Positions 3,158-18,231 of a stretch of DNA of 64,000 nucleotides are shown here, one piece after another (position 1 is the stretch's first letter; the number at the start of each line of letters is the position of its first letter). This DNA is from a phage. The notes under the pieces are model-generated. The model searched no databases. It saw nothing but the letters and a program-made list of their open reading frames with translations, and had not been told where the DNA came from. The position numbers and the translations under genes are program-made. Where the stretch lies: sequence record PZ386964.1. One strand, given 5' to 3'.

Positions 3158-4132
3158 TTAAAAATACTCCATATCGGTAATATCACGGAAGCATTTATAA
3201 AGCGCAGAGCGCGGCACGTCAACGATGCCAAAGTTAAAGAATTTATACGTCAAGTATTTGTGGCGATAATTTTCGCGATTATCCCAAAGCATCTTCCGCT
3301 CTGCCATAGGCATTGAACCTGCGGACACACGGAAAGGAATCATCTCACCCTTCTCATCTACATACTTTGGATTGACTACGACAAATGATCCGAGATAACC
3401 CTTGGCAACGAGTCCTTCAGCTTCCTTTGATCGTTTTGTGCGACCAAGCTCATCAATGAACGCTTCGTTGTTATTCTCCATCATCTCGACGAAATCTATG
3501 ATCTGTCCTTCTTCGTCGGTCCACGGCTTGTCTTTCCATACATCACGCGACTTCGGCGTTGCGCGACCATGCTTGTATTTGCCCGTCCACGATTTGCCGT
3601 ATAAGCCTTCATATCCAAGCTGGTCCGCTTCGACTTGCATTGCCGCGTATTGATCCATATTCTCAATGTTTCGGTATTCAAGGGCGCGAAGGAATGGTCT
3701 GTGGCCATGGTCCAAGAGATACTGATTGACCTCAGCAACTCTAGCCCGATAGTTCGCATAACGCTTTTCAAAAGGTAAATCGGGGTCGCTGAAGTCATCA
3801 AACACCCACCATGTAAAGTTAGTTATTGCATCAGTATTCATGCACGCAGTATATGCCTGCTGCATGACGTTCTTGTCATTAGGATTGCCGTCGATGAGTT
3901 CACCATCAAGGCCGTAAATCAAATCGCCCAAGAAAAGGAACTCTTTCTTGATTTGAACGTTTCGCAGCGGCATTCCAGACGTACCCATAGGAAGCTTGTC
4001 ATAAGCCATAGCACGTATGCCATCAACCTTAAATGACAATCCGCAAGGTAACGGAACGTCTTCACCGCGTTCGATGATTTGCTTACGTTGACAGCCTTTC
4101 ATTGGCTTAAGCGCTTTGATCTCTCCTGCCAT
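3158..4132 (-). CDS. ATP-dependent DNA ligase
   Basis: Adenylation motif KVDGIR (KxDGxR), LDGELI and EGLYGK motifs typical of ATP-dependent ligases; ATG at 4132 overlaps the stop of the upstream gene. Confidence 0.75.
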   Translation of the reverse strand: MAGEIKALKPMKGCQRKQIIERGEDVPLPCGLSFKVDGIRAMAYDKLPMGTSGMPLRNVQIKKEFLFLGDLIYGLDGELIDGNPNDKNVMQQAYTACMNTDAITNFTWWVFDDFSDPDLPFEKRYANYRARVAEVNQYLLDHGHRPFLRALEYRNIENMDQYAAMQVEADQLGYEGLYGKSWTGKYKHGRATPKSRDVWKDKPWTDEEGQIIDFVEMMENNNEAFIDELGRTKRSKEAEGLVAKGYLGSFVVVNPKYVDEKGEMIPFRVSAGSMPMAERKMLWDNRENYRHKYLTYKFFNFGIVDVPRSALYKCFRDITDMEYF

Positions 4133-4725
4133 CACTCTTTCCCCTCATTCATTACTTGTTCCAGCGCATAGGCGTAAGCCTGATCAGTCGATTTGATAAA
4201 CGTGCCGTTGTACATGACACCTTTGCGGTCCTTGATGTCTTCGTAGGCCGCTTGCGCACAGTCGGATAAGCGAAGGCCATAATCATGAGCTACGCCGGAA
4301 AGGTAATCGACTGCGACCATGATGGTGACATCAATATCCATGCTCTGATTTTTAGCAATGGCGTCACCAAGCCGTCCGAGAGTCTTTGCCAAGCGAAGGA
4401 TAAACGAGTGAGGGTGGGTACCTTTGTCAGCGCAACCGCCGCCGTTGATGTCTTCGATTTTTGCACCATTTTGCGCGGCAAGGATAGTCAATACAACAAG
4501 ACAATCACCAATGTCGTCCTTGATTGCGGCCTGCAGGTCACAGATGGCCTGCTCTGTATATCCAATTTCAGGGTCAAAGAACACAAGGTCATGGAGTTGA
4601 TCAACGTGGTCGGTTAACTCCCCAAACTCGCTGATAAGCTTCGGGTATTGGTCCTTAAGGTCGCAACCTTGGATGATGTTACGGTCAGAAGCCCACTGGC
4701 GAATGTTTGCATAAATCTGTTTCAT
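4132..4725 (-). CDS. MazG-like nucleoside triphosphate pyrophosphohydrolase (putative)
   Basis: All-alpha-looking protein with an EFGELTDH acidic helix motif resembling MazG-type NTP pyrophosphatases; translationally coupled to neighbours. Confidence 0.45.
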   Translation of the reverse strand: MKQIYANIRQWASDRNIIQGCDLKDQYPKLISEFGELTDHVDQLHDLVFFDPEIGYTEQAICDLQAAIKDDIGDCLVVLTILAAQNGAKIEDINGGGCADKGTHPHSFILRLAKTLGRLGDAIAKNQSMDIDVTIMVAVDYLSGVAHDYGLRLSDCAQAAYEDIKDRKGVMYNGTFIKSTDQAYAYALEQVMNEGKE

Positions 4726-5297: not shown

Positions 5298-6158
5298 TTA
5301 AAACTCTTCTGCGTCGGTCGGAGTTTCATTAACAGGGCCAGCGGCACCGCTTGCTTCTTCCTGCTTGCTGCGGTCAATGTTAACGTTGCCGCCAACTACA
5401 TCGTTGTGGAATGCTTTGGCGACTTCATACAGACCTTTGTCCTGCACCAGACCTTCCAGCTCAAACTTCAGAACTGACCAGGTGTTGCCATCTTTGGACT
5501 GAGACGCAGTACCCATGCGAACGATGTTCATGAAGGTCGGCGGAGTTTTCAGGCCCTGCGGAGTCTGAACTTTCTTCTGCTGCAGCGCGGTCATCAGCAT
5601 GCGAGACGGCTTGATCATGGAAGAAGTCAGAGACAGCATTGCGCTACCAAATTCACCAGTTTCTTCGTTCAACAGAATCACGAAGTGGTTACGTGTATCT
5701 GCGTAGTAAGGTGATTTCTTCTCGTGCACCTTGCCGTTCTCGTCTGGCACAAACACCTTACCGTTGATTTCAACAGCGCGGCCTGCTGCGACTTCTGCAT
5801 CAACGTGCTCTTTGGTGAATTCACCTTTAAAGCCTTTATCGTCGGACTCGCGACCGCCCCAAAGGATGAAGGTGCGTTTGAATGCGCAGGGGATGATCTG
5901 CACACCTTTCTTGCCGTCATACAATTCACCAGTAACGGTGTTGTACAACATGCCAGCTTTTGCGCCAGGAACGTGTTTTGGATCATCTTCGTCGACCATC
6001 GGAGACATCTTTTGCAGCACGACGATAAAAGGAATGGCATAAGCGTCGGCATCGGCACCTTCAAAGCCAGCGCCAAAATCGGTCATGTCGACAAAATCAG
6101 CCATAGCGGACATCTGGGTGTTTTTCACTGCAACTTCGGTAGTTTCTTTCTTAGACAT
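5298..6158 (-). CDS. Putative single-stranded-DNA-binding protein
   Basis: 286 aa ending in an acidic tail with terminal Phe (ETPTDAEEF), reminiscent of T7 gp2.5-type SSBs; sits in the replication block; terminator hairpin downstream. Confidence 0.4.
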   Translation of the reverse strand: MSKKETTEVAVKNTQMSAMADFVDMTDFGAGFEGADADAYAIPFIVVLQKMSPMVDEDDPKHVPGAKAGMLYNTVTGELYDGKKGVQIIPCAFKRTFILWGGRESDDKGFKGEFTKEHVDAEVAAGRAVEINGKVFVPDENGKVHEKKSPYYADTRNHFVILLNEETGEFGSAMLSLTSSMIKPSRMLMTALQQKKVQTPQGLKTPPTFMNIVRMGTASQSKDGNTWSVLKFELEGLVQDKGLYEVAKAFHNDVVGGNVNIDRSKQEEASGAAGPVNETPTDAEEF

Positions 6159-6217: not shown

Positions 6218-6775
6218 TTACTTTTTGCTTTTAGGCAAGGTTATTTTAGCTTCTTTATACTCAAAAACGCTAATATCTTCACTAACTGGATTACCCGCTT
6301 CCAGCTGTTCTTTTACAAATGACTTCAGTGTAGCAGAATGAATGCCTTGTTTCAACGTGGCTTCAACACCATCTTCACGCAGCGCGGCAACAATCTCTTG
6401 CGCTTGCTCGATTTCTTCGCGACCGAACTCAGCCGTGACGCTGGACTTGATCAAGCCGCCGTAACCGTTGTTGACAAGCCAATCGAATACCTTCAATTCA
6501 TTTTCTTTCTTGATTGAAGCATTTACTTTTGACTCGACCTTGATTTTGGTCTTGTCTTCAAGCTTGATTTCGGACACGCCAAGCTCATCCATAACGCCAG
6601 GAAGCAGAACAGTTTTGATTTCACTGATGCGCTGCTTTTGCATATCAGCTTCATCTTCAAGCTCTGTCAAAGCTTCTTGGCGCTCTGCCAATTCCGATAC
6701 TAAGCGCGCAAGACGCTCCTGAATGCTCTCAGGAGCAACCTGCGGCAAATCATCTTCCCAATTAATATTGCTCAT
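6218..6775 (-). CDS. Hypothetical protein with N-terminal coiled coil
   Basis: 185-aa ORF coupled to the upstream gene; charged coiled-coil N-terminus; no confident family assignment. Confidence 0.5.
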   Translation of the reverse strand: MSNINWEDDLPQVAPESIQERLARLVSELAERQEALTELEDEADMQKQRISEIKTVLLPGVMDELGVSEIKLEDKTKIKVESKVNASIKKENELKVFDWLVNNGYGGLIKSSVTAEFGREEIEQAQEIVAALREDGVEATLKQGIHSATLKSFVKEQLEAGNPVSEDISVFEYKEAKITLPKSKK

Positions 6776-12491: not shown

Positions 12492-12518
12492 ACAAAAAGG
12501 CCGCCCATTAGGACGGCC
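12492..12518 (-). terminator. Terminator-like hairpin in the leader of the dnaQ-dnaE pair (possible attenuator)
   Basis: Minus-strand RNA GGCCGUCC-UAAU-GGGCGGCC followed by UUUUUGU, ending only ~10 nt before the AGGAGG site of dnaQ. Confidence 0.45.
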
Positions 12519-12534
12519 ACAGATTCACGATTCG

Positions 12535-13086
12535 TTATACAGTGTACGGAGTACCGTCTTGATTCAAGCGCACGATGAACTTCAAATCGACGCCGATGAT
12601 ATCGCGCGTGTCAAAGATCACGTAATTGTAGCGACGTTGACCAGCAATGTTTGGATTGGTGTGGGAGTCGGTGATGACTTCCTGCGCAACCTGAATGCCT
12701 TCTTCGCTAAAGAACTTACGCCATTCAGCAAGTTCAGCGGCAGTTACGTGCATGCCAAGATGGCTAACCTGATTGTCGTGTGCATCGATATATTCGATGT
12801 TTTCGTTGATCCAGTTGCAGCCCATTGTGTAGTCAAGGATTTCAAGCTCAAGAGGCTTACCAGCGTCGCCATCAGTACCATTGCCAGCCTGATAGTTGAA
12901 GCGCAAGTCAGCTTCATTGGTGCAATCGTCGCGACGACCTTTAAAGTCATCAGCTTCAAATACGCGACCAGTAGCAACAACATGATCATGGAACCATTCT
13001 GTCAGGCCGATTTTAGCCAAGAAATCCTGTGCGCGCTGAGCATCTGGAATTGACAGGGCGATTTGTTCAATTTTAAAATGTGGCAT
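12535..13086 (-). CDS. Hypothetical protein, possibly glyoxalase/VOC-fold
   Basis: 183-aa ORF; weak resemblance to the VOC superfamily (HLGMHV); assignment tentative. Confidence 0.4.
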   Translation of the reverse strand: MPHFKIEQIALSIPDAQRAQDFLAKIGLTEWFHDHVVATGRVFEADDFKGRRDDCTNEADLRFNYQAGNGTDGDAGKPLELEILDYTMGCNWINENIEYIDAHDNQVSHLGMHVTAAELAEWRKFFSEEGIQVAQEVITDSHTNPNIAGQRRYNYVIFDTRDIIGVDLKFIVRLNQDGTPYTV

Positions 13087-13280: not shown

Positions 13281-13964
13281 TTATTTCCCAAATGGAATAT
13301 CAGTACCAGACATAAAGCGCCATGCGCCCGTAATTAAGATATGGCGAATGAAGTCAGCAATTACTTGCGGCTCAGTTTCCAATCCATTCATCAACGCCTT
13401 TTTCTGGTATTCAGCAGCATACTCAGGAGTCCAGCCGCGAGTCGCGCAAACAGCATCTTCAATCTGTTTGGACATGCCAGTACCGCGTAGCTTGTTAGGA
13501 CTAATAGAGAATACCGTGATCCCGTATTTAGGCGTAAGCTCGTGAGCCATCTGCTTGCTAATCATGAGCGCAGCAGCCTTGGAAGCATTATAACACAAGC
13601 TGGACGTCATAGGAATATGCGCAGCGTTGGAAACGATATTGATCACAAAACCTTTGTTGTCAATAAGACTTTTCAGCGCGGCCTGAGTCGTGTTGACGAA
13701 AGAGAAGGCGTTGGTGTGCATAACGCGATTGAACTCTTCGTAGTTAACATCTTCGAACCAGTTGTTGGAGTTGACGCCAGCGCAGTTGATCAAGCCTTCT
13801 ACATCATATGGGCTTAAAATTTCTTTCATCTGTTTAGCGTCGCGGACGTCATATCCGTATGCTGAATCGATGCCAAGCACGTTATGACCGTAAGCGCCAA
13901 GGGTGTCGAAAATAGATTTACCAAGACCGGAATTGGAACCTGTTACAACAATTACTTTTTTCAT
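13281..13964 (-). CDS. Short-chain dehydrogenase/reductase (SDR) family oxidoreductase
   Basis: N-terminal VTGSNSGLG (TGxxxGxG) and catalytic YNASK (YxxxK) motifs; own promoter upstream. Confidence 0.75.
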   Translation of the reverse strand: MKKVIVVTGSNSGLGKSIFDTLGAYGHNVLGIDSAYGYDVRDAKQMKEILSPYDVEGLINCAGVNSNNWFEDVNYEEFNRVMHTNAFSFVNTTQAALKSLIDNKGFVINIVSNAAHIPMTSSLCYNASKAAALMISKQMAHELTPKYGITVFSISPNKLRGTGMSKQIEDAVCATRGWTPEYAAEYQKKALMNGLETEPQVIADFIRHILITGAWRFMSGTDIPFGK

Positions 13965-14029: not shown

Positions 14030-14902
14030 CTATTTATTGAAATTAATATTATGGGTGTTAACAAGACGTTCACACATGGCGCTGTAAACACCATCATCGT
14101 GTATAGAGTCTTCGTGCTTCAGGCCGCTGATTGCAAAGCGTGTAAGCTTGACAATCTTAAGCTCGAACAGATGCCACATGTGGTAGTCTTCCGGCGTTTT
14201 CAACGTTACTCCATTAGGGAAAAGCACCTGCATAACCTGGCCAACCATCACGGCGTTATCGCCATAGACAGCGTTGCGCTCACGGAAGGTTGCTGCCATT
14301 GCATCAAGAATATCGGCGGCAGTTGCCGGAGATTGTTCAACTTTCACAGCCTTAGTCTCTTCTTGCCCTGTTGCACTTGGATCAATTGCTAATTGTTGCA
14401 CCACTTCACCTGCCTTGCAAAGATTAAATGTAAAAGCGATTTTATTTTGAGCAACGGAATTATAATACAATGCTTCATCTTGCATCCGCGCGAGTACGTC
14501 TTGTCGGTCGTCGAATACGTTGATGATTCGATAATCGCCGTGCCGCAATGCGTGCGATAGCCATGCAGATTTCATAATAGTTGATGGACGTTTGTCGCCA
14601 TAGTCTCTCATCTTGATTGTAAATTCATCAAAAGGAAAAACATTGTCCAGACGTTCAAAAGTCGCTTGTCTGTATTTTTCTGGCCTTGCAGTCCAATATT
14701 CAACCGCCTCACCGCGAAGAGATGCCGACTCTACTGCTGATGCAATGTGAGGATAGAACTGATCATAACCAATACCGCTGTGATAGTCATCATAGTCTGA
14801 CAACGGACCTGCCACCTTGATGCGGTCTAAGCGCCAACGGTCATCAAACAGCGTTCCGTCAAGGTCGAATACGTTTAAGATTTCGCTGTTTTTAATACTC
14901 AT
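14030..14902 (-). CDS. HAD-superfamily phosphatase fused to a C-terminal alpha-helical domain (possibly NTP-pyrophosphatase-like)
   Basis: N-terminal FDLDGTL and later VFDDRQD motifs; C-terminal ~140 aa with paired acidic helices (FELKIVKL, HEDSIHDDG). Confidence 0.55.
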   Translation of the reverse strand: MSIKNSEILNVFDLDGTLFDDRWRLDRIKVAGPLSDYDDYHSGIGYDQFYPHIASAVESASLRGEAVEYWTARPEKYRQATFERLDNVFPFDEFTIKMRDYGDKRPSTIMKSAWLSHALRHGDYRIINVFDDRQDVLARMQDEALYYNSVAQNKIAFTFNLCKAGEVVQQLAIDPSATGQEETKAVKVEQSPATAADILDAMAATFRERNAVYGDNAVMVGQVMQVLFPNGVTLKTPEDYHMWHLFELKIVKLTRFAISGLKHEDSIHDDGVYSAMCERLVNTHNINFNK

Positions 14903-15729
14903 CCTTTTGATACTCCATCTTTAGCAACTGGATTGTTGGTGATTGGCATCGCACTCCAAAACTGGATGCGCAACTCTTCTTGCTGTGCCGTTGTATCCAT
15001 CCAATCACGATACCAAGGGCAATGGGCTTTGCCATGACGAGGAAACGCGCATTTACCCATACCGATGCATTGCGGCTGTAATAATGGATTTGCCCACGGG
15101 TGCACCTTGAGGACTTCCGCAACCATTGCGCGGAATACTTCTTGATACTCGCCTTGAGTGCGCGTGCACAAGCGGTTTGACGCCATCTGCTGCAGCGTGC
15201 GCAAGTTGAACTTTGCCATGATATGCGTTTGCATATTAGAAGGCAACACGGCACGTGCATCTTGAATCTCTGCACCAGCCGCGCGAAGTTCTTGATACAA
15301 AGCATCGATAGTCGCCATCGCATCATCCCACTTCTCTGCTAAGTATTGCTTTTGAAGTAAAGATTGGTGCTCTTCATCAGTCCCAAATGCTTCACATTGA
15401 TCAATCAACTCTGGATTTTGGTGTGAGAATGCCTTCGGACGAATCGCATCAAATGCAGACGACTCCTGAGCGCGGCTGGTGCGTTCTTGATATGCGCCTG
15501 TGCGTGTGCGTACCATCTGATGGGTCATGTTCTTTGATACAGCTGTGATATCAAAGATATAGTCCACAAAGTCAAAAGGAGACTTGATTGTATCAAGCAT
15601 GTAGCGCCAATGCTCTTGCTTCTCTGATTCCGTCATCTCAGAGACAGGCTTACCAGTCATGCGCGTGTTCTTTGTTTCCAGCAAAAGGTCAAGTGCATCT
15701 TGGGTGTATCGAATTAATTCAACTTTCAT
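14899..15729 (-). CDS. thyX: Flavin-dependent thymidylate synthase (ThyX)-like protein with a divergent motif
   Basis: Segments THQMVRTRTGAYQERTSR and ARAVLPSNMQTHIMAKFNLRTL align to ThyX motifs (THELIRHRH...SQRY; ARAVLPNATETR), but RHR is replaced by RTR; Cys/His-rich C-terminal extension. Confidence 0.6.
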   Translation of the reverse strand: MKVELIRYTQDALDLLLETKNTRMTGKPVSEMTESEKQEHWRYMLDTIKSPFDFVDYIFDITAVSKNMTHQMVRTRTGAYQERTSRAQESSAFDAIRPKAFSHQNPELIDQCEAFGTDEEHQSLLQKQYLAEKWDDAMATIDALYQELRAAGAEIQDARAVLPSNMQTHIMAKFNLRTLQQMASNRLCTRTQGEYQEVFRAMVAEVLKVHPWANPLLQPQCIGMGKCAFPRHGKAHCPWYRDWMDTTAQQEELRIQFWSAMPITNNPVAKDGVSKG

Positions 15730-15742
15730 TTTAATTGTCCTA

Positions 15743-16189
15743 TTAACGGTAATTCACTAGTTGCTGATCACCAGAGAAGGTGCAATGATAAACGAATTGT
15801 GCGTTATAAAGCAACTGAAAACTTTTCTTTGGTTCACTATTAGAACTCATTGATGTAAAGATTTCTGCACCAGAACGGTTTTCACCAATCAGATTGATAA
15901 AGCCGCCAGTTGAACGAGGCTGGACGAAAGTGAAACGTTGCATCCACGGAGTACGGTTGGCACCTTTCCCTGTGAATCCCTGAATCTGAATATTCAAACC
16001 TTCTTGCTCATTCACACCGATGTAAGTGGTAATCTTCGCACCAGTCGTTGCTGCGGTCTTACCGTCCATCGCTTCGCAATCATAAACAGCGATTGAATCG
16101 GAAGTGCGGATGGCAGCTTCAGTCGCTTCCATATACATGGTGCCGAGAATAGCAGTTGCGGCAAGCGTGATTCCAGTGATTCGTTTCAT
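15743..16189 (-). CDS. Putative secreted protein (signal peptide), unknown function
   Basis: Hydrophobic N-terminus MKRITGITLAATAILG; two cysteines in the predicted mature part; embedded between enzyme genes. Confidence 0.5.
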   Translation of the reverse strand: MKRITGITLAATAILGTMYMEATEAAIRTSDSIAVYDCEAMDGKTAATTGAKITTYIGVNEQEGLNIQIQGFTGKGANRTPWMQRFTFVQPRSTGGFINLIGENRSGAEIFTSMSSNSEPKKSFQLLYNAQFVYHCTFSGDQQLVNYR

Positions 16190-16254: not shown

Positions 16255-17250
16255 TTATTTATTAGCAATATAAGCAAATTTTTGATAGTTATTTGCTTTG
16301 ATGAGTTTTTCAACTTCAACAAGGTCATGAGCGACGTCATCAAGCAAAATGTTGCGCCAGGTAGCAAATCGACCGACACTAAACACGTTCAAATCCATGG
16401 TCAGCTGCAGGAGTAGGGCGTGTCGCAAGTCTTTCGGAATGTCGACAATCTTGCCATATTTCTGGTCGACCTTTTCAACTTCTTCAAGAGCGATGTCGCT
16501 CCATGAGAGGCCAAATGCCGTCAGCACTTCGTCAACTTCTGCGCGCAACTTGATGTCACGGTAACGAGTGATGCCGCCAGCGGCTTCAACTGCAGCTTCA
16601 CTTACGCTGACCAAAGGAATTGTTTCAATGATAAGCGTGTCACCAGTAATTGATGCGCGGTAAGTTCTGACGGAGTAGTCAGGGAAGTAAATTGTCTGAT
16701 ACAAATCACACTTACGTTTAATCTTAAAGCGGTAAACGCGAATGTTTGCTTTATCAAATGAGAAATCAAGCTTTTGATCAATTCCAGCAAGCTTCATCAT
16801 GACTGGCAGCGGCGACGTGTTGATGATTGGCGTCTCGCTATAGCCGCAAAGAGTATCAACCGGAGTATTAAAGAATATGCGGTCACCCAGTTTGTCGACA
16901 AGCTGATCATAAAAGTCATCAGGTGCAATATAACGCGTTGCAGTTTTAAGCTTCATGATTGAACGACTGCCAAACTGATTGGTGACCTTCATGGAATACA
17001 TATTGGCAAGGTTGATTGGGCAATGGTCGTGATAGTAGTTGCCGCGAAAATACACAGCCTTGTCAACTGTCACGGCCTTAAAGGGGATTCCGGTAATACG
17101 GCTTACTTCTTCGCCGCGAAAGCGTAGCAGCGCCTTGTGCTGTTGCGCTCGTTCCCCTGCTTCGTACACAATAGAGTTCGGGAAGTGACACGCGGTGATA
17201 AGTCCTGCCAGTCCGCCGCCGATAATCATTACAGGTTGTTTCATGTTCAT
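16255..17250 (-). CDS. FAD/NAD(P)-binding oxidoreductase
   Basis: N-terminal dinucleotide-binding motif VMIIGGGLAGL; ~331 aa; specific family not resolvable by eye. Confidence 0.6.
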   Translation of the reverse strand: MNMKQPVMIIGGGLAGLITACHFPNSIVYEAGERAQQHKALLRFRGEEVSRITGIPFKAVTVDKAVYFRGNYYHDHCPINLANMYSMKVTNQFGSRSIMKLKTATRYIAPDDFYDQLVDKLGDRIFFNTPVDTLCGYSETPIINTSPLPVMMKLAGIDQKLDFSFDKANIRVYRFKIKRKCDLYQTIYFPDYSVRTYRASITGDTLIIETIPLVSVSEAAVEAAGGITRYRDIKLRAEVDEVLTAFGLSWSDIALEEVEKVDQKYGKIVDIPKDLRHALLLQLTMDLNVFSVGRFATWRNILLDDVAHDLVEVEKLIKANNYQKFAYIANK

Positions 17251-17327: not shown

Positions 17328-17357
17328 CGAAAAAAAGACCCACAACAAGTGTGGGTC
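17328..17357 (-). terminator. Rho-independent terminator after the KEA-rich protein gene
   Basis: Minus-strand hairpin GACCCACA-loop-UGUGGGUC followed by a run of seven U. Confidence 0.65.
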
Positions 17358-17385: not shown

Positions 17386-18231
17386 TTATTCCGCTTGATC
17401 ACCGTCTTCGGCATCGTCGTTGGATTCAACATCGACAAACTCGATGTGGCCCATCTCTTCCAGCTTGCTCAGGTAGGAGCGAACGGAAGCGCCAAACAGT
17501 TGATCTTTAACTTTCTCTCCCAGCTCATCGATAGACTGCGCCACGCCAACTTCGCCTTCTTTGATCGCCGCCAGAACGCGCCCACGGGTGGAGTGCTCTT
17601 GCGGCTGGCTCAGGCCATTGCCAGTGTAGATGAAGTGAGTAGCTTTTGCACGACGCTGACCGTTTGCCTTTTTAGCAGCCTTGCGCTCTGCGATGGCTTT
17701 GCGACGTTCTTCAGCTTCTTTCTTACGCTGTTCTTTCTGCTGTTCTGCAGCTTCTTTCGCCGCAATCTTAGCAGCTTCACGCTCTGCCTTGCGTTTCGCT
17801 TTAGCTTCTTCTTTGGCCTTCTCTTTTTCGGCCTTCGCTGCAGCACGGGCCTGATCACGTTCGGCCTTTTTCGCCGCAGCTTGTTCAGCTTTCAGGCGCT
17901 TGGCTTCTTCTTTCGCCTTTGCCTTTTCAATTTCTTTAGCGGCTTTAGCGGCTTCACGCTCTGCCTTCTTAGCGGCAGCCTTTTCTGCACGCTCTTTAGC
18001 TTTCTTAGCTGCTTCTTCAGCACGCTTCTGAGCCTTCTCATCAGCAGCTTGCTTGCGTTTCAGCGCAGCTTCTTCACGCTTGGCTTGTTTTTCCTGCTCA
18101 CGCTTCTGGCGTTTTTCTTCGGCTTCTTTCTTTTTAGCCAGGCGTTTTTCTTCAGCCACGCGACGACGTTCTGCTGCGGCTGCTTGTTTTTCTTCTTTAG
18201 ATAATACTTTGATTGCTTCGGCCATATTCAC
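17386..18231 (-). CDS. Lysine/alanine/glutamate-rich low-complexity protein with C-terminal globular (possibly winged-helix) domain
   Basis: ~200 aa of KEA repeats (AAKKAEREAAKAAKEIEKAKAKEEAK) followed by ...VRSYLSKLEEMGHIEFVD and an acidic tail; terminator downstream. Confidence 0.55.
   Translation of the reverse strand: MNMAEAIKVLSKEEKQAAAAERRRVAEEKRLAKKKEAEEKRQKREQEKQAKREEAALKRKQAADEKAQKRAEEAAKKAKERAEKAAAKKAEREAAKAAKEIEKAKAKEEAKRLKAEQAAAKKAERDQARAAAKAEKEKAKEEAKAKRKAEREAAKIAAKEAAEQQKEQRKKEAEERRKAIAERKAAKKANGQRRAKATHFIYTGNGLSQPQEHSTRGRVLAAIKEGEVGVAQSIDELGEKVKDQLFGASVRSYLSKLEEMGHIEFVDVESNDDAEDGDQAE

Follow-up and report, generated by a model that had tools for sequence, protein, structure and literature searches.

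A non-canonical ThyX homolog of Wifcevirus and related phages, its obligate partner flavoprotein, and a tentative link to thymidine hypermodification

The catalytic cycle of the flavin-dependent thymidylate synthases (ThyX, or FDTS) goes via an exocyclic methylene (PMC8989533). In the canonical enzymes, such as TM0449 of T. maritima (Tm), Rv2754c of M. tuberculosis (Mtb) and the H. pylori (Hp) protein, the RHR motif provides contacts to the phosphate and ribityl groups of FAD, and a Tyr forms a lid above uracil C5 and flavin N5 (PMC6514825). This Tyr (Tyr91 of Tm) and Ser88 were termed 'strictly conserved' in a 2025 structural paper; mutation of Tyr91 makes flavin oxidation ~1000-fold slower, and His53, also conserved, hydrogen-bonds Tyr91 and stacks on the pterin of folate or on reduced flavin (PMC11940539). 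Here we describe a ThyX-like protein of 276 amino acids (aa) in which both Tyr91 and His53 are replaced, encoded in a 64,000-nucleotide (nt) stretch of phage DNA (sequence record PZ386964.1, called the window below) that represents almost the whole genome of an Escherichia myovirus (genus Wifcevirus). It has the fold and the Pfam family of the canonical enzymes and shares their dUMP ligands (Tm Q75, R78, R80, S88, R90, R147 and R174) and FAD ligands (Tm R78, R80 and R165). Unlike them, it has RTR for RHR, Ala for Tyr91 and Ile for His53, and adds a four-Cys site and a 64-residue tail. Unlike canonical thyX genes, genes of its type are always paired with a gene for a second flavoprotein.

Several described systems resemble what is proposed below for this protein. 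PolB of polyoxin biosynthesis, a neofunctionalised ThyX paralogue and UMP/dUMP C5-methylase, is likewise a ThyX-family protein recruited to make C5-modified uracil nucleotides (PMC5954106). It differs in being a Streptomyces secondary-metabolism enzyme. We know of no partner flavoprotein or Cys cluster for PolB, and PDB entry 4p5a, labelled only 'Thymidylate synthase ThyX' and presumably PolB, was a weak match (E 0.03). The ThyA-family dUMP 5-hydroxymethyltransferases (SPO1, ViI, M6 and PhiW-14 pathway) have the role proposed here, a C5-hydroxymethyl entry step, but an unrelated fold and cofactor chemistry (folate and Cys, versus flavin here). The pathway that leads from 5-hydroxymethyl-deoxyuridine (5-hmdU) to hypermodified thymidine is reportedly the one described by Lee et al. 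in 2018 and 2021. It is defined by the 5-HMUDK kinase; neither this kinase nor a ThyA-type hydroxymethylase, TET/JBP, glycosyltransferase or DpdA was recognised among the ~33 window open reading frames (ORFs) scanned with Pfam, PHROGs or NCBIfam, a scan that included no remote-homology search. Nucleotide-pool hydrolases lie nearby in the phages with ThyA-family 5-hmdU, as they do at the window locus (PMC8989533). MnmEG and TrmFO differ in fold and act on tRNA/rRNA polymers instead of mononucleotides, but use a flavin-N5 methylene relay like the one proposed for the ThyX-like protein; in MnmEG the methylene is captured by glycine or ammonium and not reduced, which is the chemistry proposed here (PMC8989533). 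Such nucleophilic capture of an exocyclic methylene is the accepted route to hypermodified T and cmnm5U (PMC8989533).

The original prediction, made from the letters of the window, had placed a ThyX homolog at this locus, and the searches agree with it. The protein matched Pfam Thy1 (PF02511) over residues 5-212 with 102.4 bits (cut-off 24.8, E 3.4e-29) and phrog_85 'thymidylate synthase' with E 4.6e-39. Its AF2 model (pLDDT 86) had T. maritima ThyX 1o26 as best PDB match in Foldseek (E 9e-11), and the top matches were all T. maritima ThyX (probability 1.00, TM ~0.71 normalised to target). With NCBIfam TIGR02170, the thyX equivalog model for isofunctional dTMP synthases, it scored 78.3 bits, under the cut-off of 87.9. 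The ORF has an ATG start with AGGA 9 nt upstream as ribosome-binding site, and its TGA stop and the start codon of the next gene overlap as ATGA. A minus-strand ORF at 14892-15326 and several plus-strand ORFs over 14899-15729 are alternative-frame ORFs of 44-144 aa, unsupported and probably spurious. The ~5.5 kb spanning the locus is 94-97% identical to that of FEC19, WFH, ECML-117 and the BASEL isolates Bas98-101.

Residue correspondences come from aligning the protein, as well as a clade profile built on 30 sequences, to PDB-derived ThyX sequences with HMMER. Both segment alignments on which the homology had first been noticed were reproduced against M. tuberculosis ThyX, SKnltHQlvRTRtGAyQQeTSRA standing opposite SRsctHEliRHRhfSySQlSQRY and dARAiLPsNmaT opposite aARAvLPNAtET. 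R74-T75-R76 aligns with Tm R78-H79-R80 and Mtb R95-H96-R97, which confirms the predicted replacement of RHR by RTR. Thr occupies the middle position in 111 of the 120 closest database homologues and His in none, the remainder having RMR or RIR, and both Arg are invariant. Across the wider subfamily this position is T, H, S, Q or N, and the members with RHR retain all other peculiarities and the same partner gene; the substitution was therefore ruled out as the key diagnostic change. A87, at the site of the lid/catalytic Tyr (Tm Y91, Mtb Y108, Hp Y87), and I48, at the Tm His53 site, are invariant among 30 diverse clade members, as is R86 (Tm R90). The lid Tyr is present in nearly all of the 60+ cellular ThyX sequences examined, with Phe in two, and the His in almost all.

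The nucleotide and FAD ligands are retained as S50, Q71 (Tm Q75), R74, R76, R86, R159 (Tm R147), N175, R177 (Tm R165) and R186 (Tm R174), with roles as given in PMC6514825; the retained dUMP-contacting residues are K66 (Mtb R87), Q71, R74, R76, T84/S85 (Tm S88), R86, R159 and R186. Within this list Q71, R74, R76, R159 and R186, the dUMP-binding and activating set, are all invariant in the clade. Because the dUMP contacts and the FAD-holding arginines are invariant, the nucleotide side of the active site appears intact, while the folate/NADPH side and the lid appear rebuilt. Judged from these residues, binding of dUMP and FAD is very probably still retained and flavin-N5-mediated carbon transfer to C5 very probably continues, so that a one-carbon unit would still be placed on C5 of dUMP. 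That His53 and the aromatic lid are lost together fits the hydrogen bond reported between His53 and Tyr91.

These residues also bear on the suggestion, made in the original prediction, that the enzyme acts on another nucleotide (dCMP, UMP or dTMP), for example as a PolB-like ribonucleotide C5 methylase, as a dCMP C5 modifier, or by reversing the last ThyX step and oxidising the dTMP methyl. PolB, a ThyX paralogue, does have relaxed sugar specificity (PMC5954106), and a folate-independent reaction, for example dTMP oxidation, would agree with the missing folate-stacking His. However, the dUMP contacts are all present, R186 (Tm R174, the residue that reads the uracil and activates it) and all phosphate ligands are invariant, there is no ribonucleoside-antibiotic context, and the modified base reported in related phages is a thymidine derivative, not a cytidine derivative (PMC12191111). 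A change of substrate is thus not favoured, and we regard it as quite unlikely.

An exhaustive HMMER search over 1.8 billion representatives gave 1510 relatives. A clade-profile alignment was made of the best 150 of these 1510, 26 distant members and 80 loci obtained by scanning a single genome of each prokaryotic species. Class i consists of cellular chromosomal ThyX of ~205-212 aa with His at the His53 site, RHR, the lid motif S-Q-R-Y and no Cys cluster, in Spirochaetota, Dehalococcoidia, Hadarchaeota and other hosts. Class ii combines this canonical active site (His, RHR, lid Tyr) with a Cys cluster. Class iii, which holds the window protein, has Ile at the His53 site, R-[T/H/S/Q/N]-R, an aliphatic or small lid residue and four Cys; class iv has Ile, a position equivalent to the RHR middle like that of class iii, an aliphatic or small lid residue and no Cys. 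An additional group (L130) combines RQR with a Leu in place of His53 and Phe as the lid. On this alignment, classes iii and iv are best defined by the joint loss of His53 and of the aromatic lid. The non-canonical subfamily was located on phage genomes, viral contigs and a few contigs of metagenome-assembled genomes (MAGs) with phage-type replication genes, and the branch is apparently virus-borne.

In three relatives (P0159, P0165 and P0256) the ThyX-like match is interrupted by inserts of ~165-385 residues, probably inteins. Inteins usually mark essential active enzymes. It could be argued that a protein without Tyr91 and His53, both regarded as essential, is a catalytically dead ThyX relic that serves as a nucleotide- or flavin-binding scaffold or as a regulator of the neighbouring enzymes. 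We consider this very unlikely, as substrate and cofactor residues are very strongly conserved (80+ invariant columns across clade sequences of just 45-60% identity), the family is large and widespread with its 1510 representatives, and the apparent inteins are typical of essential active enzymes.

The second flavoprotein (phrog_4828) is encoded upstream on the same strand. Searches with Pfam, NCBIfam and PDB profiles gave no significant match for it, and its fold, like that of UDP-galactopyranose mutase (UGM) and protoporphyrinogen oxidase (PPO), was assigned through fold search. UGM, PPO and amine-oxidase flavoproteins are the closest known proteins, with 390-510 aa versus 331 in the partner and 10-18% identity. 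A profile of the partner was run against the six frames of every fetched locus, loci with at least 1.1 kb of upstream sequence being counted. The partner gene lies just upstream, on the same strand and often overlapping, in all 45 loci with a non-canonical ThyX-like gene, whereas none of 60 canonical loci and none of 4 mixed loci has it within 6 kb. The association is seen in Pbunavirus LMA2 and Carpasinavirus FoX6, and it holds in metagenomic contigs whose ThyX-like protein has RHR and an identity as low as 35-48% (L046), in MAG contigs (L047-L051) and in the class without Cys (L127-L129); it is kept down to partner identities of 25-30%. The Phe-lid class is without a partner gene. The flavoprotein is an obligate and previously unnoticed partner of this ThyX branch. 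A scan of viral_contigs with the clade alignment gave the same phage supergroup only, and independence was judged from the distant alignment on genome_contigs and from look-ups of exact proteins. No Rosetta-stone fusion of the two proteins was found, the representatives including one doubtful 277-aa chimera (P0213); long ThyX-like representatives have unrelated N-terminal extensions or intein-like inserts.

The gene downstream of the ThyX-like gene is translationally coupled to it through the ATGA overlap and encodes a HAD phosphatase fused to a DUF6378-like domain. This C-terminal domain had no significant match in Pfam, NCBIfam and PDB profile searches, and its assignment comes from sub-threshold matches in homologues only. 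The phosphatase and the DUF6378-like domain usually come next after the ThyX-like gene in relatives, and they form separate adjacent ORFs in two distant contigs (L127 and L129); in L129 the module is followed by a dATP/dGTP-pyrophosphohydrolase-family gene and a dCMP deaminase gene.

The protein had also been predicted to carry a ~50-residue C-terminal tail rich in Cys and His. The extension is there, modelled with confidence (pLDDT >90 for residues 200-260), and P267, A269 and G272 in it are invariant in the clade alignment. It is longer than proposed, ~64 residues, since the Thy1 domain stops at about residue 212, and it is Cys-rich and not Cys/His-rich, because H232 (H/W/Y/F) and H236 (H/Q/K/S) vary. 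In CIGMGKCAFPRHGKAHC the conserved residues are just the three cysteines C221, C227 and C237. With C188, which lies in a core helix two residues past R186 and aligns with Tm D176, they are conserved in 121 of 121 sequences, and the four together probably form a metal site (Zn or Fe-S). The Cys cluster is not tied to the altered active site, because relatives whose active site is fully canonical and which lack a partner gene have it too (L052, L061, L077 and L085), and it is missing from a partner-bearing class (L049-L051, L127-L129); it was therefore rejected as a marker of new chemistry. The four canonical relatives, with His, RHR and SQRY, have the Cys of the core and the first ones of the tail; they may be intermediates in evolution or a class of canonical ThyX that binds metal. 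The original interpretation of an altered enzyme therefore stands in part: the protein is a non-standard ThyX by its score below the equivalog cut-off, its Y91A and H53I changes and the adjacent flavoprotein gene, but the RHR His and the Cys cluster, on which that interpretation had relied, are not diagnostic.

A possible function is suggested by the DNA of related phages. Pbunavirus DNA is hypermodified and is targeted by END nucleases; the DNA of Pbunavirus F8 resists enzymes with TG in the site, according to a 2025 preprint (PMC12191111). Liquid chromatography coupled to mass spectrometry (LC-MS) of F8 and 14-1 detected new thymidine-derived nucleosides of 362 and 390 Da, which replace about a quarter of T and were read as sugar-alcohol and pentose adducts with proposed O-linked structures, and the preprint stresses that no known modification genes are present in the two phages (PMC12191111). 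Wifcevirus phages are insensitive to the restriction-modification (RM) systems tested, with no known mechanism (PMC11990801). The window nevertheless contains 14 EcoRI and 5 EcoRV sites. The trio of partner, ThyX-like and HAD genes is present in both F8 and 14-1, and the ThyX-like gene is a leading, though unproven, candidate for the thymine modification of these Pseudomonas phages. Its presence in phages with hypermodified thymidine makes a different C5 modification, which the original prediction had also considered, more plausible.

We tentatively favour, at somewhat less than an even chance, the reading that the ThyX-like protein is a C5-modifying dUMP enzyme that feeds thymidine hypermodification. 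Within a conserved phage module made up of the UGM/PPO-like flavoprotein, the ThyX-like protein, the HAD phosphatase and the DUF6378-like domain, it would be the flavin-dependent subunit that binds the nucleotide; in the window phage, the short-chain dehydrogenase/reductase (SDR) and the VOC-like protein would join them in one terminator-bounded unit. A flavin-N5 adduct would carry a one-carbon unit to C5 of dUMP. In canonical ThyX the lid Tyr and the folate- and flavin-stacking His screen the C5/N5 centre and power the reductive half-reaction; both are lost here, and our proposal is therefore that, instead of simple reduction to dTMP, the exocyclic-methylene intermediate is trapped by water or another nucleophile. 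The result would be 5-hydroxymethyl-dUMP or a bulkier C5 adduct, a putative entry point to the thymidine hypermodification of the related Pbunaviruses, and this C5 product would probably be behind the restriction resistance of Wifcevirus. The partner flavoprotein may have a redox or tailoring role, and the HAD/DUF6378 protein may hydrolyse the nucleotide pool.

A number of points weigh against this reading. The adducts of F8 and 14-1 differ despite partner proteins that are 97% and ThyX-like proteins that are 92% identical; the pair cannot specify the adduct. The HAD/DUF6378 fusion, the most divergent member of the trio with 80% identity, could be related to the difference. In F8, some three quarters of the T remains ordinary and modification is specific to TG, which requires a step at the DNA level, beyond a mononucleotide enzyme, and a pre-replicative 5-hmdU route needs an extra kinase or transferase as well as conversion of the remaining 5-hmdU to T. 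The dCMP deaminase gene by some relatives fits plain dTMP synthesis equally well. The associated contigs all share a DnaE-type polymerase, primase-helicase and ligase replication module, and most of the 45 associated loci come from a single phage supergroup, which accounts for 38 loci; because of this shared module and the dominance of one supergroup, the partner association is partly inherited and not independently evolved. The literature yielded no functional study, biochemical or genetic, of this ThyX subfamily and no study of DNA modification in Wifcevirus.

Nearly as likely is that the protein belongs to a genuine two-component synthase that converts dUMP to dTMP, hypermodification in the relatives being the work of other, DNA-level enzymes. 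The adjacent flavoprotein would then supply the functions of His53 and Tyr91 (gating on the NADPH/folate side and acid catalysis), for instance as a reductase or a methylene supplier, with the HAD/DUF6378 protein providing dUMP or trimming the pool of nucleotides. This reading draws its strongest support from F8, where most T is canonical and the modification is sequence-specific, hence post-replicative. The dUMP- and FAD-binding residues are also all conserved, ThyX is common in phages (483 phage records), the dCMP deaminase gene of L129 adjoins the module, and the module is widespread among phages with DnaE-type replisomes. The Leu/Phe-lid class, which exists without a partner, suggests that ThyX may do without the hydroxyl of its lid Tyr. 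However, canonical cellular ThyX never needs or carries the partner, as the 60 canonical loci show, substitution of Tyr91 has its ~1000-fold cost in T. maritima (PMC11940539), a UGM/PPO-like protein has no known role in thymidylate synthesis, the invariant phosphatase linkage is left unexplained, and the protein scores under the thyX equivalog cut-off.

Beside the C5-modifying enzyme that we favour, an improbable but more far-reaching form of it deserves mention, namely that the ThyX-like protein, together with its UGM-like partner, constitutes a new flavin-dependent pathway for building a hypermodified pyrimidine at the nucleotide level, possibly adding the sugar directly. A flavin-N5 iminium derived from formaldehyde, or even from an aldose, would be passed to C5 of dUMP and then trapped, giving 5-hydroxymethyl-dUMP or directly a sugar or sugar-alcohol adduct. 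A flavin-N5 iminium with a sugar is the chemistry used by UGM. By mass arithmetic, 362 fits dU plus a C-linked pentitol and 390 fits dU plus a hexosyl group as well as they fit the O-linked structures of the preprint.

Restriction-site counts were considered as a sign of base modification in the window and were rejected, as they show palindrome avoidance for some enzymes and cannot reveal modification. Some 6-bp palindromes are scarce in the window (BamHI 0, SmaI 0, KpnI 1, SacI 1 and XbaI 1, versus 9-18 expected), HindIII sites are enriched (53 versus 18 expected) and TA dinucleotides are depleted (odds 0.69). The phage T-dioxygenases (5mYOX/ParB, PMC13229309) were likewise set aside, as the paper is not on Pbunavirus and no such gene was recognised in the window ORFs scanned.

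Table 1. Positions of the ThyX-like gene, its altered sites and the surrounding features in the window
Feature	Position	Strand	Description
Intrinsic-terminator-like hairpin, upstream of unit	17337..17357	-	8-bp stem, 5 GC pairs, then T7 run
Partner flavoprotein gene	16255..17250	-	331 aa; GxGxxG at residues 11-16; UGM/PPO-like fold
148-aa ORF between partner and ThyX-like genes	15743..16189	-	Signal-peptide-like N-terminus
ThyX-like gene	14899..15729	-	276 aa; Thy1 match, ThyX fold; non-canonical member of the flavin-dependent thymidylate synthase family
Ile48	15586..15588	-	Counterpart of Tm His53 by HMMER alignment
R74-T75-R76 codons	15502..15510	-	Canonical RHR site
T84-S85-R86-A87	15469..15480	-	Counterpart of S-x-R-Y by HMMER alignments; Ala at the lid Tyr site
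Cys188	15166..15168	-	Fourth invariant Cys
C-terminal extension, residues 213-276	14902..15093	-	Past the Thy1 end (212); C221, C227, C237 and conserved terminal N-P-V-A-x-x-G
HAD (PNKP-type) phosphatase fused to helical DUF6378-like domain	14030..14902	-	Pfam HAD_PNKP, residues 11-142
SDR gene	13281..13964	-	Pfam adh_short, 109 bits
VOC-superfamily-like protein, last gene of unit	12535..13086	-	183 aa; Pfam Glyoxalase_4 E 0.004, below cut-off
Intrinsic-terminator-like hairpin, end of unit	12499..12518	-	8-bp stem, 7 GC pairs, then T5 run
TolA-like gene	17386..18231	-	281 aa; Lys/Ala/Glu-rich, low complexity
Pam3_Gp34 gene	5298..6158	-	PF23977
DUF7307 / Pam3 gp33-like gene	6218..6775	-	PF23984
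MazG-like pyrophosphatase gene	4132..4725	-	By ligase gene; Pfam E 0.01, sub-threshold

The unit on the minus strand has the order partner, 148-aa ORF, ThyX-like gene, HAD fusion, SDR, a small ORF and VOC-like gene (Table 1). The 148-aa ORF had no match in family searches and is Wifcevirus-specific, with homologues in four loci only (L005-L008). The SDR gene co-occurs in most loci of the supergroup outside Pbunavirus, and the VOC-like gene co-occurs with it. Beyond the upstream hairpin, between a Dda-like helicase gene and the partner gene, lies a gene annotated as 'TolA protein' in relatives; its Pbunavirus counterpart (LMA2 gp66, 'putative structural protein') has the same location. The Pam3_Gp34 and DUF7307 genes, farther away in the window, also accompany the module in very distant contigs (L127-L129) and may be part of the same replication/nucleotide module. 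A separate gene, annotated as MazG-like in Bas99 and 14-1, could encode a nucleotide-pool enzyme that excludes or supplies a dNTP.

Whatever the product, a gene set can now be named, consisting of the ThyX-like gene, the UGM/PPO-like flavoprotein gene and the HAD/DUF6378 gene, that is common to Pbunavirus, Wifcevirus, Carpasinavirus, Serratia and Pantoea phages and many uncultured relatives; Pbunaviruses rank among the most used phages in Pseudomonas therapy. If dTMP is its product, the protein would be the first case of a ThyX that functions with neither the 'strictly conserved' Tyr91 nor His53 and that depends on a second flavoprotein, which would bear on the debated mechanism of ThyX and on ThyX as a drug target. 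If it makes a different product, the flavin-dependent thymidylate synthase family would have its first non-methylating member and DNA hypermodification a new entry route, and if the less probable nucleotide-level pathway holds, the protein would be the first hydroxymethylating or alkylating member, with the missing hypermodification genes of Pbunavirus and Wifcevirus identified. A role in modification would also explain the restriction resistance of the Wifcevirus phages of E. coli.

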